Source: an uncultured Clostridium sp. (GTDB lineage Bacteria; Bacillota; Clostridia; TANB77; CAG-508). From it: a stretch of 64,000 bases of DNA. The notes under the pieces are model-generated. The model ran no database searches, was not told the DNA's origin, and saw nothing but the letters and a program-made list of their open reading frames with translations. The translations under genes and the position numbers were made by a program. Positions 404-7,862 of the stretch are shown in pieces. The stretch covers positions 760 to 64,759 of the forward strand of contig CANSPP010000004.1 of NCBI GenBank assembly GCA_947648905.1. Direction: 5' to 3'. Within the stretch, counting starts at the first letter, position 1, and every line of letters begins with the position of its first letter.

Positions 404-1546
404 TTATAATTCAATTATTTTTTCCCAAGGTAGTTCAGTTTTTCCAAAATGTCCATAGTTTGTAGTTTTCTTATATATTGGTTTGCGTAAATTTAAATAA
501 TTTATTATTCCTCTTGGTGTCAAGTCAAATTTTTCGTATATTTTTTCTGCTATTTCTTCTTCTGGAATTGTTGCCGTTCCAAAAGTTTCTACATATATTG
601 ATACTGGTTTTGCTACTCCTATTGCATATGATAATTGTATTTCACATTTTTTTGCTAGCTTATTTGCTACTATATTTTTAGCAATACATCTTGCCATATA
701 TGAAGCTGACCTATCAACTTTTGTTGCATCTTTTCCTGAAAATGCACCACCACCATGTCTTGCATATCCACCATATGTGTCAACAATTATTTTTCTTCCT
801 GTTAATCCGCTATCACCTAGTGGTCCTCCAATTACAAATCTTCCTGTTGGATTTATGTAATATTTTGTTTTTTCATCTAATAGGTCACTTGGTATAATAT
901 ATTTTATTACTTTTTCTTTTATGTCTTTTTTTAATTTGTCTAAATCTGCATCAGCAGTATGTTGTGTAGAAACAACTACTGTATCTACTCTAACTGGTGT
1001 GTCTCCTTCATATTCTATTGTTACTTGAGTTTTTCCGTCTGGTCTCAAATTTTCTACAATATTTTCTTTCCTTACTTGTGTTAATCTTTTTGACAATTTA
1101 TGTGCCAAAGTTATAGGTAATGGCATTAACTCTTCTGTTTCTGAACAGGCATACCCAAACATCAAACCTTGGTCTCCTGCTCCTTCTGACGAAATACCTT
1201 CTCCTTCTTTTTCTTCTAAAGCTTTATCCACACCTAATGCTATATCACTAGACTGTTTTGACATATTAACAATTATTTTGCAAGTTCTATAGTCCATATC
1301 TGTCTCACTATTATCATATCCAACTTCTTTAATTGTCTCTCTTGCCACTGCTTCAATATCCACTTTTGCATTTGAAGTTATTTCACCTGTTATATATATT
1401 TCACCTTTTCCTGCTACTGTTTCACAAGCCACTCTTGAATTTTCATCTTCTGCTAAATGTGCATCTAATATGCTATCTGATATATAATCACATAATTTAT
1501 CTGGATGCCCTTCTGTTACACTTTCTGACGTAAATAATTTTCTCAT
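404..1546 (-). CDS. metK: S-adenosylmethionine synthetase
   Basis: 380 aa, [20 protein letters not shown]... canonical MetK motifs; RBS GGAG upstream of ATG 1546. Confidence 0.97.
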
Positions 1547-1595: not shown

Positions 1596-1745
1596 AAAAA
1601 GCCTTTGCATTTTTGTGCAAAGGCTGTATTTTCTTTTTTGTTTTATCAGCCAAAGCACTTTGCTTTGTCGGTATTAGCACCTTATTTTTCAATAGGTTGC
1701 TGTGGAGTCATTGAGCCGATTCTCTCGTCCACTCTTGATAACAAT
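1596..1745 (-). ncRNA. SAM-I (S-box) riboswitch with intrinsic terminator, leader of metK
   Basis: minus-strand reads GTTATCAAGAGTGGACGAGAGAATCGGCTCAATGACTCCACAGCAACC...AAGGTGCTAATACCGACAAAG...GGCTGATAAAA = S-box consensus blocks; terminator hairpin GCCTTTGCA/TGCAAAGGC (1598-1626) + U-run. Confidence 0.9.
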
Positions 1746-2397: not shown

Positions 2398-4557
2398 TTA
2401 CTCGTCGTCCTTATTATCTAAATGAATAACTCTTTCTTTAATTTCTTGAGTTCTACCCTTATTCCAGAAATTACTTCCAATATAACCACAAGTTCTTCTA
2501 GCTACATTCAATGTATCGTGATTTCTATTTCCACAGTTTGGGCAATACCATTCTAAGTCTTCATCAATTAAAATTTCTCCTGTATATCCACATTCTTGGC
2601 AATAATCTGATTTTGTATTTAATTCTGCATACATAATGTTGTCATAAATGAATTTGATTACTTGTAATACAGCAGGTAAATTGTTTTGTAAATTTGATGT
2701 TTCTACATATGATATAGCTCCACCTGGGCTTAATTCTTGGAATTCACTTTCTAATTTTAGTTTAGAAAATGCGTCTATTTCTTCAAATACAGGTACGTGA
2801 TATGAGTTTGTTATATAATCTCTATCTGTTATCCCTTCAATTTCTCCAAATCTGTCTTTTAAGCATTTTGCAAATTTATATGTTGTTGATTCTATTGGTG
2901 TTCCATACACACTGTAGTCCATATTTTCTTTTTCTTTCCATTCTTTACATTTAGCATTCATTCTCTTCATTACTTCGATTGCTAAGTCTTTTCCTTTTCC
3001 ATTGTCTGTATGGCTGTGTCCTGTCATATATTTTACACATTCATATAGTCCTGCATATCCAAGTGATATTGTTGAATATCCGCCATGTAATAAATCGTGT
3101 ATTTTTGCTCCTTTTGGTAATCTTGCTAATGCTCCATATTGCCATAATATTGGTGCTACGTCACTTGTTGCTTTTGCTAGTCTTTCGTGTCTTAGTTGAA
3201 GTGCTTGGTGACATAGTTCTAGTCTTTCGTCATATATTTTCCAGAATTTATCTAAGTCTTTTCCTGATGATAATGCAACATCTACTAAGTTTATTGTTAC
3301 AACACCTTGGTTAAATCTTCCATAATATTTTGGTTTGTTTGTTTCTGGGTCAACATATGGTGTTAAGAATGAACGACATCCCATACATGGGTAGCAGTTT
3401 CCATTTCCATTTTTGTCTTTTTTAAGTTCTTTCATTTTCTTTTCTGATATGTAATCTGGTACCATTCTTTTTGCTGTACATTTTGCTGCAAGTTCTGTTA
3501 AATACCAATATTTGCTGTTTTCGTGTATATTATCTTCTTCTAATACATATAGTAGTTTTGGGAATGCTGGTGTAATGTATACTCCTTTTTCGTTTTTCAT
3601 TCCTACTATTCTTTGCTCTAAAAATTCTTTTATTATTAATGCTAATTCTTCTTTATAGTCTTCTGTTTCTCCTAAATAGAAACATACACTTAGGAATGGA
3701 GATTGTCCATTTGTTGTTGTCATTGAGTTTATTTGATATTGGAATGTTTGAACTCCATCTTTTATTTCTTTTAGTAAATCTTCTTTTGCAAATTTCTCGC
3801 ATTGTTCTTTACTTAGTTTTCTAGCTTCATATTTCTTTAAATATATATTGTAACTATCTCTTACGAATGGGGCTAAATGTGTCATTGTTACTGTTGCACC
3901 ACCATATTGGCTAGATGTTACTGCTGTTATTATTTGTGTTGCAATTGTCATTGCTGTTAAGAATTTATGTGGTTTTTCTATCATTACACCATTTATGTTT
4001 GTTCCATTTTGTAACATATCTTCTAGGTTTATTAAATCACAATTATGTAGTGCGTTTTGTGCAAAATAATCTGCATCGTGGAAGTGGATTATTCCTTCGT
4101 CATGTGCTTTTACAATGTTTTCTGGTAATAAAAATCTTCTTGTTATGTCTGTACTTGTTATTCCTGCTAAATAATCTCTTTGTGTTGTTACTACTTTTGC
4201 ATTTTTGTTAGAATTTTCATTGTTCCAATATTCACTTTCACCTTCAATTAATTCTTTTATTGATTGGTCTGTTGTGTTTGCTTTTCTAACTAGTGCTCTT
4301 GTGTATCTATATGTTATATATTTTTTTGATAGTTGATATTTTCCCTTTTCCATCAATTTTTCTTCTATTATGTCTTGTATGTCTTCTACTAATATTCTTG
4401 GTTTTTGTAACTCTTCAATATAGTTTGTTATTTCTTTTATATCTTCTAGTGTTGCTCTTTCTTTTCTTGGTACCTCATTATTTGCTTTTTGAATTGCTAC
4501 TTTGATTTTTTCCCTATTATAATCAACTATTGTTCCATCTCTTTTTATGATTTTCAT
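2398..4557 (-). CDS. nrdD: anaerobic ribonucleoside-triphosphate reductase (class III RNR), copy 1
   Basis: ATP-cone MKIIKRDGTIVDYNREKIKVAIQKAN, C-terminal Zn ribbon CPNCGN and glycyl-radical motif RRTCGYIG; start at ATG 4557 (RBS AAAGGGGA). Confidence 0.95.
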   Translation of the reverse strand: MKIIKRDGTIVDYNREKIKVAIQKANNEVPRKERATLEDIKEITNYIEELQKPRILVEDIQDIIEEKLMEKGKYQLSKKYITYRYTRALVRKANTTDQSIKELIEGESEYWNNENSNKNAKVVTTQRDYLAGITSTDITRRFLLPENIVKAHDEGIIHFHDADYFAQNALHNCDLINLEDMLQNGTNINGVMIEKPHKFLTAMTIATQIITAVTSSQYGGATVTMTHLAPFVRDSYNIYLKKYEARKLSKEQCEKFAKEDLLKEIKDGVQTFQYQINSMTTTNGQSPFLSVCFYLGETEDYKEELALIIKEFLEQRIVGMKNEKGVYITPAFPKLLYVLEEDNIHENSKYWYLTELAAKCTAKRMVPDYISEKKMKELKKDKNGNGNCYPCMGCRSFLTPYVDPETNKPKYYGRFNQGVVTINLVDVALSSGKDLDKFWKIYDERLELCHQALQLRHERLAKATSDVAPILWQYGALARLPKGAKIHDLLHGGYSTISLGYAGLYECVKYMTGHSHTDNGKGKDLAIEVMKRMNAKCKEWKEKENMDYSVYGTPIESTTYKFAKCLKDRFGEIEGITDRDYITNSYHVPVFEEIDAFSKLKLESEFQELSPGGAISYVETSNLQNNLPAVLQVIKFIYDNIMYAELNTKSDYCQECGYTGEILIDEDLEWYCPNCGNRNHDTLNVARRTCGYIGSNFWNKGRTQEIKERVIHLDNKDDE

Positions 4558-4632: not shown

Positions 4633-4676
4633 TTGGATAAAAAAATTTAGAGACGTGTTTTTATTTACACGCCTCT
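4633..4676 (-). terminator. rho-independent terminator after mnmA
   Basis: hairpin AGAGGCGTGTAAATAAAAACACGTCTCT followed by AAATTTTTTTATCC on minus strand. Confidence 0.7.
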
Positions 4677-4703
4677 AAGGAAACAAGTTTTATTACAATT
4701 ATA

Positions 4704-5756
4704 TTACAAAATTTTACCTCCGCCTAAAACTAAATCTCCATCATAAAAAACAGCAGATTGTCCAGGTGTTATAGCTCTTTGTGGCTCATCAAAAATAACC
4801 TTGATTTCGTCATTTTCCTGAATTATTTTCGCTTTAGCAGCTTTTGAAGAATATCTAGTTTTAACTTCAACATCAATCCAATCTTCTATTTTATCAACTA
4901 AAATCAAGTTGATATCTTTCACTCTTATCTCTTTTGTATATAACGCTTTTTCTTCTCCAACAATAACTTCGTTTCTAGCTTTATTGAAACCTAAAACAAA
5001 TAATGGCACAGGATTAGAAATTCCAAGACCTTTACGTTGTCCAATTGTATAATAATATAAACCTTTATGTTTTCCTAAAACTTCGCCTTTTGAGTTTACT
5101 ATATTACCTTCTTTTGGTTTTAAATCCGAATTATTTTCCAAGAATTTTTTATAATTTCCATCTGGTATAAAGCAAATATCTTCACTGTCTGGCTTGTTTG
5201 CAACTTTTAGATTGTTTTTTCTCGCTATTTCTCTTATTTGCTCTTTTTCTTCAAAGTCTGCCAAAGGAAATAATATATGCTCTACTAATTCTTTTGGTAT
5301 GTTCCATAACACATAACTTTGGTCTTTTTTTCCTGCATTTGATTTTGCTAATGCCCATCTTTGATATTTTTCGCTATATACTATTTTTGCATAATGACCT
5401 GTTGCTATATAATTACATCCTAATTCTTTTGCTTTTTCCCACATTGCACCAAATTTCATATACTTGTTACATTCTATACAAGGATTTGGTGTTTTGCAAT
5501 TTGAGTAGCAGTCTATAAAATCATTTATAACATATTTTTTGAATTCTTCTTTATAGTTATATGTAAAGTGTGGGACACCTATTTGATTACACACATTCTT
5601 AGCATCTATATATGTTTCTATATTACAACAGCTACTCCCTGCAAATAGTTCTAGTGTTGTTCCTATTACTTCATATCCTTTTTCTTTTAATAGTAAAGCT
5701 GATACACTACTGTCTACTCCACCGCTCATTCCTAATAATACTTTTTTATTTTCCAT
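4704..5756 (-). CDS. mnmA: tRNA 2-thiouridine(34) synthase
   Basis: 350 aa, MENKKVLLGMSGGVDSSVSALLLKEKGYEVIG PP-loop. Confidence 0.93.
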   Translation of the reverse strand: MENKKVLLGMSGGVDSSVSALLLKEKGYEVIGTTLELFAGSSCCNIETYIDAKNVCNQIGVPHFTYNYKEEFKKYVINDFIDCYSNCKTPNPCIECNKYMKFGAMWEKAKELGCNYIATGHYAKIVYSEKYQRWALAKSNAGKKDQSYVLWNIPKELVEHILFPLADFEEKEQIREIARKNNLKVANKPDSEDICFIPDGNYKKFLENNSDLKPKEGNIVNSKGEVLGKHKGLYYYTIGQRKGLGISNPVPLFVLGFNKARNEVIVGEEKALYTKEIRVKDINLILVDKIEDWIDVEVKTRYSSKAAKAKIIQENDEIKVIFDEPQRAITPGQSAVFYDGDLVLGGGKIL

Positions 5757-5766
5757 TTTTATTCCT

Positions 5767-6198
5767 CTATTTTTTATTCAATATATCTTCAATTGTATGC
5801 CAAGCAAGCAAAGCACATTTCACCCTTGCTGGCATATTTGAAATATTTCTAAAAGCAATTGCATCTTCTAGTTTTTCTAATTCTTCTTCGCTTGTTGTTT
5901 CTCTTTTTATCATTTCTATAAATGTTTTTATTATTTCTTTTGCTTCTTCTACTGTTTTTCCTTTTAATGTATCTATCATAATTGATGTTGAAGCTTGTGA
6001 AATAGCACATCCATGTCCTGTAAATGCCATATCTTCGATTGTATTTCCATCTAATTTTATTTCTATTTCTATTTCGTCTCCACAGTTTGGGTTATGCCCT
6101 AATTCTGAATAGTCAGCTTTTTCTAGTTTCTTTTTGTTGTATGAATTCATACTGTGTTCCATTATTAGTTCATTATACATTTGACTTAGTTCGTCCAT
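5767..6198 (-). CDS. sufU: SUF Fe-S cluster assembly scaffold/sulfur-transfer protein (SufU/NifU-like)
   Basis: 143 aa, GHNPNCGD...GHGCAISQAS motifs. Confidence 0.85.
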   Translation of the reverse strand: MDELSQMYNELIMEHSMNSYNKKKLEKADYSELGHNPNCGDEIEIEIKLDGNTIEDMAFTGHGCAISQASTSIMIDTLKGKTVEEAKEIIKTFIEMIKRETTSEEELEKLEDAIAFRNISNMPARVKCALLAWHTIEDILNKK

Positions 6199-6228
6199 TT
6201 TTCTTTCCTTTCGTTTTATTCTATTTTA

Positions 6229-6257
6229 GTTGACAATTTATTTTATGTGTGTTAATA
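6229..6257 (+). promoter_or_regulatory. orphan sigma70-type promoter TTGACA-17-TAATAT on plus strand with no downstream ORF
   Basis: ttgacaatttattttatgtgtgttaatat; feeds directly into a hairpin/terminator at 6303-6342. Confidence 0.5.
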
Positions 6258-6263
6258 TAATAA

Positions 6264-6342
6264 TATAAAGGATAAGAGCTATGCCCTTATCTCTCTGGTT
6301 GGTGAGATTTATCCGCGGGATAGATCTCTATTTTTCTTTTTT
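6264..6342 (+). ncRNA. candidate ~80-nt sRNA, convergent and antisense to 3' end of the small membrane-peptide gene (putative type I antitoxin)
   Basis: perfect promoter upstream; terminator GAGATTTATCCGCGGGATAGATCTC (11-bp stem) + TATTTTTCTTTTTTT at 6303-6342; overlaps peptide gene 6287-6342. Confidence 0.35.
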
Positions 6343-6448
6343 TGGAATAATACTTTAATTGATATCTATTCTTCGAACACATATGTATTAAAAATCCTAT
6401 TCCTATAAAGAAAACTACTAATATTAACAGGATTCCTATTAATTTCAT
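6287..6448 (-). CDS. 53-aa membrane peptide, candidate type I toxin (TxpA/BsrG-like architecture)
   Basis: MKLIGILLILVVFFIGIGFLIHMCSKNRYQLKYYSKKRKIEIYPADKSHQPER: one TM helix + basic tail; strong RBS AGGAGG-9nt-ATG 6448; own promoter and structured leader. Confidence 0.5.
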   Translation of the reverse strand: MKLIGILLILVVFFIGIGFLIHMCSKNRYQLKYYSKKRKIEIYPADKSHQPER

Positions 6449-6589
6449 AGCCATCAACCTCCTTCTTACGTAATTTACATTTAAGCTATAAAAAGCATAA
6501 ATGCATAGATTAGTAAGCATATATTACATAAACTTACCAGTCTATGCACTTATGCTTGAAGGAAGTTGATTTGTTTACCAACCAATCGA

Positions 6590-6618
6590 ATTATACCATA
6601 AGATAAATCGGCAGTCAA
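6590..6618 (-). promoter_or_regulatory. internal promoter TTGACT-17-TATAAT after sufS driving the small peptide (and sufU-mnmA)
   Basis: minus strand ATTGACTGCCGATTTATCTTATGGTATAATTCG; leader 6494-6556 forms 15-bp stem AGCAUAAGUGCAUAG/CUAUGCAUUUAUGCU. Confidence 0.55.
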
Positions 6619-6641
6619 TAATTTTGCAAACTTTTTTTCGT

Positions 6642-7862
6642 TTATTTTACAATATATTTTTCAAACATCTTGTACGCTTTTTCAAGCCCTGCAACTAGCT
6701 TATCCACATCTTCCTTAGTATTATAGAAATAGAAACTTGCCCTACAAGTAGAATCAATTCCCATAAATCTAAGAAGAGGTTGAGCGCAATGATTACCAGA
6801 ACGTACACATACATTTTGAGAGTCTAATATGCTTGCAACATCGTGTGGGTGAATTCCTTTTATATTAAAAGATATTACGCCTGAATGATTTTCTTTATTT
6901 GGTGTTAAATATAAGTCTATATATCCTAATTTTGATAATTGTTCTCTTGCATATTCTAAAACTTCATTTTCCATTTTGTGAATATTTTCGTATCCAATTT
7001 CTTCTATATAATCAATTGCAGCTCCTAACCCGATTACACCTTCGACGTTTTGTGTTCCTGCTTCGAATTTATTAGGAAGTGGTGCATATGTTGTTTCTTG
7101 CTCATATACATATTCAATCATATCTCCACCCATTAAAAACGGAGACATCTTATTTAATATTTCTTTTTTTCCATATAATATCCCAATACCTAAAGGTGCT
7201 AGCATCTTGTGTCCTGAGAATACTAAAAAATCACAATTTAATTCTTGTACATCTATTTTCATATGAGGTATACTTTGAGCCGCATCAACTATAACAATTG
7301 CTCCTTTTTTATGAGCATAGTCTATTATTTTTTTTACATTGTTTATTGTTCCTAAAACATTTGAAACTTGTGTTATTCCAACAATTTTTGTTTTGTCTGT
7401 TATTTTACTTTCAATTTCTTCGTCTGCAATTTCAAAATTATCATTTATGTACATATAGTTTAACTTGCTACCTGTTGCTTTTGCAACTTTTTGCCAAGGG
7501 ACAATGTTAGAATGATGTTCCATTATTGATACTACTATTTCATCATCTTTTTTTAATTCATTTAAACCATATGAATATGCAATCAAGTTTAAGCTTTCTG
7601 TTGCATTTTTTGTGAATATCACTTCTTCTCTATGTTTTGCATTTATAAACTTTGCAATTTTTGTTCTTGTATTTTCATATTGCTCAGTTGCTTCAATACT
7701 TAGAGAATATGCTCCTCTATGTGGATTGGCATTACTTTTTTCATAAAAATTGTCTATTGCTTCTATTACTTGTCTTGGTTTTTGTGTTGTTGCTCCACTG
7801 TCTAAATACGCTATATCGTTTTGTAATATTGGAAAATCATTTTTTATCTTTTCTATATCCAT
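6642..7862 (-). CDS. sufS: cysteine desulfurase, SufS/NifS family (PLP)
   Basis: 406 aa, ...RSGNHCAQPL... class II desulfurase signature. Confidence 0.9.
   Translation of the reverse strand: MDIEKIKNDFPILQNDIAYLDSGATTQKPRQVIEAIDNFYEKSNANPHRGAYSLSIEATEQYENTRTKIAKFINAKHREEVIFTKNATESLNLIAYSYGLNELKKDDEIVVSIMEHHSNIVPWQKVAKATGSKLNYMYINDNFEIADEEIESKITDKTKIVGITQVSNVLGTINNVKKIIDYAHKKGAIVIVDAAQSIPHMKIDVQELNCDFLVFSGHKMLAPLGIGILYGKKEILNKMSPFLMGGDMIEYVYEQETTYAPLPNKFEAGTQNVEGVIGLGAAIDYIEEIGYENIHKMENEVLEYAREQLSKLGYIDLYLTPNKENHSGVISFNIKGIHPHDVASILDSQNVCVRSGNHCAQPLLRFMGIDSTCRASFYFYNTKEDVDKLVAGLEKAYKMFEKYIVK

Follow-up and report, generated by a model that had tools for sequence, protein, structure and literature searches.

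A candidate type I toxin-antitoxin-like cassette in the suf-mnmA operon of uncultured gut Clostridia

Toxin-antitoxin (TA) systems of type I in Gram-positive bacteria are defined by features such as a small transmembrane (TM) peptide and an overlapping antisense RNA (PMC6563280). In bsrG/SR4 a 3' overlap of the two RNAs is combined with sequestration of the Shine-Dalgarno (SD) sequence (PMC3834814), and in hok and aapA a 5'-3' long-distance interaction renders the full-length mRNA inert (PMC5416894, PMC6733600). The yonT gene lies on a polycistronic mRNA that is controlled by SR6 (PMC5848175). Within the Clostridia, only the type I systems of Clostridioides difficile have been validated experimentally (PMC6563280). 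Here we describe a cassette of about 420 bp between sufS and sufU in a 64,000-nucleotide stretch of DNA from an uncultured Clostridium sp. (GenBank assembly GCA_947648905.1, contig CANSPP010000004.1, positions 760 to 64,759). This stretch is called the window, and positions without a locus name refer to it. From sequence comparison we consider the cassette, with a rough probability of 0.7, a type I TA-like module of a previously undescribed family; since no match to a described family, to phages, to plasmids or in the literature was obtained, it is filed as a new family of a known kind. A preliminary description, made from the letters of the window alone, had proposed a type I TA module at this place, and the comparative data support that interpretation.

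Peptide gene and predicted mRNA

The decisive evidence lies outside the window, in the conservation of all elements of the cassette across 64-70 distinct copies elsewhere. The window DNA has a guanine-plus-cytosine (GC) content of 29%, and its promoter-like hexamer pairs are as frequent as in shuffles of DNA of this composition (21 found, 22.8 expected), so that promoter-like matches alone are no evidence and the window sequence by itself is no proof of function. Terminator-like sites exceed expectation (5 found, 0.8 expected).

The peptide gene is an open reading frame (ORF) of 53 amino acids at 6287-6448 on the minus strand (stop included), with exactly the sequence first quoted for it. The AGGAGG ribosome-binding site noticed earlier is part of a conserved AAGGAGG at 6458-6464, 9 nt before the ATG at 6448. 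SD sequence, start codon and reading frame are kept in the full-length copies, in 57-58 of which the ORF is intact. For codons 2-36, which the antisense overlap does not reach, the median ratio of nonsynonymous to synonymous substitution rates (dN/dS), taken over 1335 pairs, is 0.37. Insertions and deletions in the ORF come only in multiples of 3, and stop codons occur in its frame at a frequency of 0.001, compared with 0.18 and 0.057 in the other two frames. Diversity by codon position gives a weak coding signal (0.28/0.22/0.32), probably because of overlapping RNA constraints. On this comparative evidence purifying selection acts on the protein that the ORF encodes. Gene callers passed over it in identical contigs.

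The TM helix with basic tail described at the outset was found again by prediction. Residues 3-21 are strongly hydrophobic (mean Kyte-Doolittle value 3.2), the C-terminal 29 residues hold 9 K/R and 3 D/E, and AlphaFold, given an alignment of 52 sequences, predicts a helix over residues 2-26 at a confidence score (pLDDT) of ~95, followed by a beta-hairpin of lower confidence at 29-44. Cys24, Tyr33, Ser35 and the tail motif KRKIEIYP are invariant, and residue 22 is His or Tyr (His/Tyr22-x-Cys24). A 'MELIEHLLMKLVSFGG...' subfamily (~20 of 57 aligned copies, e.g. L054-L069) carries charged residues near the N-terminus and solves the anti-SD pairing differently (GGAGUACC...UUCU); in these copies the TM helix may be weaker or the peptide attenuated. 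An extended ORF of 77 amino acids (6287-6520, from ATG 6520) was rejected as the coding sequence: it has no SD sequence and starts inside the leader hairpin, and the homologues begin at Met 6448.

The peptide gene has a strong promoter of its own, as had been claimed: TTGACT-17-TGgTATAAT at 6590-6618 on the minus strand is an 11/12 match with TG extension, and a TTGAC(T/A)-17-TATAAT-like promoter stands at the equivalent position in 62 copies. Just upstream of the -35 box (6627-6640, minus strand) most copies carry the motif CGAAAAAAAGTT(C/T)G, perhaps as an UP element or as an operator-like palindrome (CGAA-N6-TTCG).

From this promoter a highly structured mRNA of ~325 nt is predicted (6262-6586, minus strand), with a minimum free energy of -119 kcal/mol and z = -11.5 against shuffles. 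The distant copies L058 and L075 fold independently to the same architecture (z = -8.7 each), which comprises a terminal helix of the 5' and 3' ends, a helix of anti-SD and SD, a long hairpin in the leader and others in the coding region, the hairpin of the antisense terminator and a 3' terminator. In the terminal helix, here called the clamp, a 5' arm at 6577-6584 (UGGUUGGU) faces a 3' arm at 6296-6303 (ACCAACCA, codons 49-51). Inside it, an anti-SD arm at 6558-6570 (AUCAACUUCCUUC) pairs with the SD region at 6453-6465 (GAAGGAGGUUGAU), which is thus sequestered in the predicted full-length fold; all four arms lie on the minus strand. For the leader the preliminary description had given a stem of 15 bp. 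A stem is present, and fold and covariation define it as a long hairpin over 6493-6557 (minus strand) with 29 pairs and bulges in the window copy. Directly after the stop codon a further element was found that had not been described before, a minus-strand terminator-like hairpin (6271-6291; 6268-6295 as a feature of the predicted mRNA). Its complement forms the 5' hairpin of the antisense RNA, and its stem covaries between subfamilies. The sequestration of the SD sequence and the clamp that closes the mRNA likewise go beyond the preliminary description, and both are supported by covariation.

In an alignment of 57 transcripts 84.5% of the cells at paired positions can pair, compared with 41-49% when the partners are slid, and 44 pairs show changes on both sides, compared with 29.2 +/- 2.7 in shuffles (0/500). 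The anti-SD helix of 13 bp has both-side changes in 9 of its 13 pairs, with 88.6% of cells paired; for the 25 aligned pairs of the leader hairpin the value is 98.5%, with compensatory changes in 10. An alignment-based test of the clamp (helices 1-2) gave ~46% paired cells. Since the pairing register differs from one subfamily to the next and the ends are misaligned by MAFFT, the clamp was tested free of alignment instead, from the duplex energies that the first 24 nt of a copy give with the 3' linker region of the same copy and with those of other copies. Own-copy duplexes reach -10.5 kcal/mol and cross-copy duplexes -7.2 kcal/mol (0/20000 permutations); with 11 well-separated representatives the values are -11.2 and -7.0 kcal/mol (2/50000). 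The motif pairs of the clamp differ by subfamily and include GGTTGG/CCAACC, GTGATTGATTA/TAATCAATCAC, TTAGTTAGTA/TACTAACTAA, AGTTGTTTTG/CAAAACAACT and GTGTGTTTG/CAAACACAC. One natural variant, L055 (3957-4203), has precisely lost the long leader hairpin and keeps promoter, SD sequence, intact ORF and antisense gene.

Antisense gene, decayed copies and genomic setting

On the plus strand a second promoter, TTGACA-17-TGtTAATAT, was identified by hexamer match and by its conservation in the copies. The motif is as first described, and its position had to be moved by one base to 6230-6258. It would drive a predicted antisense RNA of ~78 nt (6264-6343, plus strand), the candidate antitoxin, composed of a 5' hairpin, a G/U-rich single-stranded linker, a terminator hairpin and a U-tract. 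The plus-strand terminator reported earlier is present: its stem occupies 6304-6328 and is followed by TATTTTTCTTTTTTT to 6343, the U-tract (6329-6343) being the complement of the KKRK codons. To follow this gene through the family, 64 distinct 3' regions, truncated copies included, were anchored on the invariant KRKIEI codons. TTGACA and the 17-nt spacer were each found in 63 of them, TAATAT in 60 and the TG extension in 61, and the convergent promoter and terminator, scored as sequence signals only, are conserved in 64/64. The convergent small RNA of ~80 nt over the 3' end of the peptide gene that had been predicted from the window is in this way borne out as a prediction for essentially all copies, with a length of 78-102 nt and two hairpins; this fold with its U-tract is obtained for 54 of 59 distinct predicted RNAs, with a linker of 11-20 nt. 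The further statement that the plus strand holds no ORF is nearly right. An ORF of 25 amino acids exists at 6281-6358 inside the predicted antisense RNA and was rejected as a gene, as it lacks an SD sequence, has its ATG in the variable loop of hairpin 1 and is not conserved elsewhere.

The two genes constrain each other closely. The stem of the antisense terminator is encoded by codons E41-H49, with 92.8% of cells paired, and the invariance of KRKIEIYP can be attributed to the encoding of this stem and its U-tract on the opposite strand. The loop of the terminator varies in length only in multiples of three, and a Y43C change (TAT>TGT) is compensated in the stem by a synonymous change at D46 (GAT>GAC); together these observations show that protein and RNA stem are selected at the same time. 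In addition, the -10 box and start region of the antisense gene are the complement of the U-rich tail of the sense terminator. The linker is identical in sequence to the 5' arm of the clamp and is complementary to the 3' arm, so that antisense RNA and mRNA 5' end would compete for the same 3' site.

Decay of the module is uneven. At least six distinct copies (L009_4138, L051, L058_1889, L063_6163, L066_2305, L078) carry independent deletions by which the leader hairpin loses its 3' half and the ORF its SD sequence and first 10-35 codons, while both promoters and the antisense gene stay. L009 holds an intact copy at sufU|mnmA and a decayed one at sufS|sufU. Among the copies compared there is no intact ORF without an antisense promoter. 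By analogy, this asymmetry, with a dispensable toxin and a retained antitoxin, matches TA pairs. In L053 an orphan remnant between sufU and mnmA (4038-4111) consists of the antisense-RNA region only (profile positions 254-332).

The peptide has 13 close homologues (62-93% identity), none of which is named or has a Pfam domain. At E <= 1 a profile search returned 219 clusters at 90% identity; every one comes from metagenome-assembled genomes of Clostridia and is either labelled 'hypothetical' or has no name. In a scan with one genome per species, 49 loci were found in ~48 species, all of them uncultured Clostridia of the gut, sampled from human, rabbit, goat, mouse and chicken; one carrier is a closed chromosome of 1.55 Mb. 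Inside the suf-mnmA cluster lie 42 of the 49 loci, always co-oriented with it. The preliminary description had suggested looking for the peptide between sufS and sufU in relatives; it is indeed conserved, and three junctions are used rather than this one alone (sufD|sufS, sufS|sufU and sufU|mnmA), often with two copies in one operon, besides loci outside suf. Among the fetched loci the number of intact copies per operon ranges from none (L078, remnant only) to two, and close relatives differ in presence, absence or decay of the module (L011, L009, L017). More distant members adjoin rnhA, a GGDEF-EAL gene, a two-component system or RNase J.

In the window the minus strand carries, in this order, a dtxR-like gene, sufC, sufB, sufD, sufS (6642-7862), sufU (5767-6198), mnmA (4704-5756), nrdD, nrdG, a SAM (S-adenosylmethionine) riboswitch and a metK-like gene. 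The spacer between sufS and sufU measures 443 bp and houses every element described above. By comparing occupied and empty sites of close relatives, the limits of the cassette were set at 6215-6635 (minus strand), in the stretch that separates the sufS stop codon from the ribosome site of sufU. In the window a 6-bp direct repeat, ACGAAA, stands on both flanks (6636-6641 and 6209-6214); the occupied site of L017 has GCGAAA on both flanks and the empty site of L011 (2070-2090) a single GCGAAA. The repeat could be a target-site duplication or microhomology. Neither a transposase nor a clear terminal inverted repeat was found at the cassette, beyond the two inward-facing -35 boxes. The module occurs once in the 64 kb (nhmmer match at 6254-6573), the window's own sufU|mnmA junction being empty. 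For sufU itself, the best promoter match downstream of the cassette is weak (9/12).

The same junctions carry unrelated ORFs in relatives (L057 1828-2557, L042 4210-5145, L031 4685-5991 and the sufU|mnmA spacers of L039, L043, L050, L066 and L067), among them a kinase-like ORF of 223 amino acids, one of 289, a PP-loop-like one of 235 and several of 120-145. From these sequences the suf-mnmA junctions look like a general insertion hot spot. Further modules in other large gaps of the suf operons of relatives were ruled out, as the gaps hold unrelated ORFs. One relative (L018, 1916-2179) has a sufB-sufD spacer of 265 nt without homology to the cassette. Between mnmA and nrdD a strong terminator-like hairpin (4647-4678, minus strand; 12 pairs and a T-run) marks the end of the suf-mnmA transcription unit. 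The SAM riboswitch (RF00162, 81.9 bits) lies at 1640-1744 (minus strand), upstream of an ORF of 380 amino acids (404-1546, minus strand) that is metK-like as judged by synteny with relatives.

Proposed mechanism and rival explanations

In the mechanism that we propose, the strong sigma-A-type promoter on the minus strand would make the ~325-nt mRNA for the 53-residue peptide, which, with its single TM helix and basic cytoplasmic tail, would be a membrane-active toxin. The full-length mRNA would fold into a closed rod: its first ~10 nt would pair with codons 49-51 and the upstream anti-SD with the region from the SD sequence to the AUG, and a hairpin of 25-29 bp would fill the leader. With such a fold the primary transcript should be poorly translatable. 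The convergent promoter would make a ~78-nt RNA whose sequence fully complements the final ~18 codons and the 3' untranslated region (UTR) and whose linker would target the same 3' site as the clamp. Pairing of this RNA with the 3' region of the mRNA may lead to destruction of the duplex by RNase III-type decay, as in txpA/RatA and bsrG/SR4, may keep the mRNA untranslatable, or both; duplex decay and closed mRNA, singly or together, would keep the membrane-active peptide off. The analogy with bsrG/SR4 (PMC3834814), with hok and aapA/IsoA (PMC5416894, PMC6733600) and with the systems of Clostridia (PMC6563280) is the ground on which we infer transcription of both RNAs, toxicity of the peptide, the nuclease and any activation step.

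We put forward two additions to this mechanism tentatively, by which the family would go beyond a selfish TA pair, and regard them as rather doubtful. The antisense RNA could act as a strand-displacement antitoxin, its linker competing with the clamp; displacement of the mRNA 5' end would then expose this end to 5'-dependent decay or re-lock translation. To our knowledge such a mode has not been described for type I systems. Likewise, the cassettes could have been co-opted as operon-internal units of promoter, terminator and antisense RNA that would uncouple sufS, sufU and mnmA from sufCBD in genome-reduced gut Clostridia. If true, co-option would tie the supply of iron-sulfur clusters and tRNA thiolation to a membrane-active peptide.

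Several observations weigh against a toxin-antitoxin module. Promoter-like matches are as common in this AT-rich DNA as by chance, and the antisense RNA alone folds unexceptionally (z = -1.6). The controls applied to the covariation cannot fully remove shared ancestry, and all sequences derive from metagenome assemblies. As to the peptide, the invariant Cys24 and the conserved C-terminal beta-hairpin could point to a specific partner rather than to general membrane damage, and a large 'MELIEH' subfamily with charged N-terminal residues (E2, E5, H6, K10) has weaker TM character. The module lies off prophages and plasmids, unlike most Gram-positive type I systems, and its near-confinement to the suf-mnmA operon in constant orientation could mean functional coupling instead of selfish persistence. 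A conserved suf-associated membrane protein that is non-toxic when overexpressed had been named from the outset as a finding that would refute a toxin, and in this lineage the peptide is mostly suf-associated.

One rival explanation is that the peptide is a non-toxic small membrane protein which works with the Suf or tRNA-thiolation machinery, for example by anchoring or regulating this machinery at the membrane via His/Tyr22-x-Cys24 and the C-terminal hairpin, with antisense RNA and folding merely tuning its level. We consider it unlikely, although the 42 of 49 co-oriented loci inside suf-mnmA, the invariance of Cys24, Tyr33, Ser35 and KRKIEIYP, the small beta-hairpin predicted after the TM helix and the absence of the module from the phage and plasmid collections searched all agree with it. 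Much of the KRKIEIYP conservation, however, is explained by the antisense terminator on the opposite strand; distant copies stand beside unrelated genes, and the insertion of unrelated genes at the same junctions fits a hot spot. With three junctions in use, none to two intact copies per operon, presence, absence and decay differing among close relatives, and independent deletions that inactivate the ORF and leave the antisense gene in place, position, copy number and integrity of the peptide are, in the genomes compared, too variable for a fixed Suf component. Less likely still is an operon-internal regulatory RNA device, in which strong internal promoter, leaky terminator and antisense RNA would act together to tune or uncouple the downstream genes (here sufU-mnmA), with the peptide as a secondary passenger. 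In the suf operon cassette and downstream gene always share one orientation, and the cassette ends 25-35 nt before the start codon of that gene; no independent strong sufU promoter was seen (best candidate 9/12), truncated copies retain both promoters, and yonT on its SR6-controlled polycistronic mRNA offers a precedent (PMC5848175). Against such a device stands the purifying selection on the ORF as a protein, intact in 57-58 full-length copies. The occupied junction differs between species, so that no consistent stoichiometric break results; empty sites work without the cassette (L011 and the window's own sufU|mnmA junction), and outside suf a copy can point away from the genes on either side of it (L075, L077). 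A third rival, the mere coincidence of AT-rich promoter-like hexamers, hairpins and a spurious small ORF within a spacer, would agree with promoter-like sites at chance rate and with an ORF skipped by gene callers; its probability is close to nil, as it is refuted by the comparative data, with 64-70 distinct copies conserving all elements and with covariation, fold z-scores and dN/dS all pointing to selection.

As a type I TA-like module, the family would add at least 219 unnamed protein clusters from abundant, uncultured gut Clostridia, and the model of its RNA architecture, which is backed by covariation and unusually complete, can be put to a direct test with the cloned ~420-bp cassette. 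It would join two designs from separate lineages, an antitoxin that overlaps the 3' end, as in Bacillus, and a 5'-3' clamp, as in hok and aapA. That the family occupies an essential, highly conserved operon time and again raises the question whether such cassettes hitch-hike on housekeeping genes or were recruited as regulators. Compact self-contained RNA control cassettes of this kind could also be useful parts for synthetic post-transcriptional regulation.

Comparison with described systems

Scans of Pfam and NCBIfam gave no toxin family even at E <= 10 (TxpA/BsrG, Fst/Ldr, Hok/Gef, Ibs, TisB and others); the best matches are unrelated TM noise of 12-17 bits, compared with cut-offs of >= 25 bits. 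In Rfam nothing reached the gathering score in this region, and at E <= 10 only miRNA-hairpin noise and SIB_RNA (15.7 bits, gathering score 56) appeared. PHROGs and PADLOC scans gave nothing significant. With tblastn a single match at E = 7 was obtained in 50,697 phage records and none in 72,556 plasmids, and literature searches for the peptide motif and for type I TA systems with sufS/sufU found nothing. The earlier assignment to the TxpA/BsrG/Fst type thus holds for the type I layout, which the comparative tests support, and falls for sequence membership in those or other described families.

As to the features that define the class, the cassette has a gene for a small (<60 amino acids) TM peptide that is really coding and, by its sequence signals, an antisense RNA gene that overlaps the toxin-like mRNA. 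That the peptide would be toxic is hinted at indirectly, by the several layers of predicted translational repression and by the recurrent loss of the translation start from copies in which the antisense gene is kept. With the Bacillus subtilis systems bsrG/SR4 and txpA/RatA (also bsrE/SR5 and yonT/SR6) it shares a peptide with N-terminal TM segment and charged C-terminus; again as in these systems, the genes are convergent with overlapping 3' ends, and the predicted antisense RNA is short and has its own intrinsic terminator. A toxin mRNA with partly sequestered SD sequence is also known from Bacillus (PMC3834814; PMC6563280). In contrast to these systems the cassette resides in a housekeeping operon instead of a prophage or the skin element, has no similarity to them by Pfam, NCBIfam or Rfam, and is predicted to close a 5'-3' clamp and a long-range anti-SD helix around its 25-29-bp hairpin. 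We know of no description of such a clamp and helix for the Bacillus systems.

A 5'-3' lock with SD sequestration in a fold conserved by covariation is the feature shared with hok/Sok of enterobacterial plasmids and chromosomes and with aapA/IsoA of Helicobacter and Campylobacter; in the cassette the long-distance interaction of the predicted full-length mRNA is likewise supported by covariation. As among the chromosomal hok genes, many copies are inactivated (PMC6733600). The antisense RNAs of hok and aapA pair with the 5' region of the 3'-processed mRNA, whereas the antisense gene of the cassette lies over the 3' UTR and the final ~18 codons, the 3' arm of the clamp among them, and not over the 5' region. 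Unlike in hok and aapA, the antisense linker mimics the mRNA 5' end and the SD sequence is sequestered by a 5'-proximal anti-SD instead of the 3' end; the cassette is not homologous to them in sequence and has a Firmicute as its host.

The modules CD2517.1-RCd8, CD2907.1-RCd9, CD0956.2-RCd10 and their relatives in C. difficile also combine a host from the Clostridia with convergent overlapping genes, and their toxins of 34-59 amino acids with hydrophobic N-terminus and Lys-rich C-terminus resemble the peptide described here (PMC6563280). Their promoters are of the sigma-B type, and they lie in prophages or beside CRISPR arrays (PMC6563280), whereas the promoters of the cassette family are of the sigma-A type with an extended -10 box, and the family is located in the suf operon and otherwise beside housekeeping genes and lacks significant phage or plasmid homology. 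In its arrangement the cassette is closest to the 3'-overlap systems of Bacillus, in its mRNA logic to hok and aapA, and in host and toxin shape to the modules of C. difficile.

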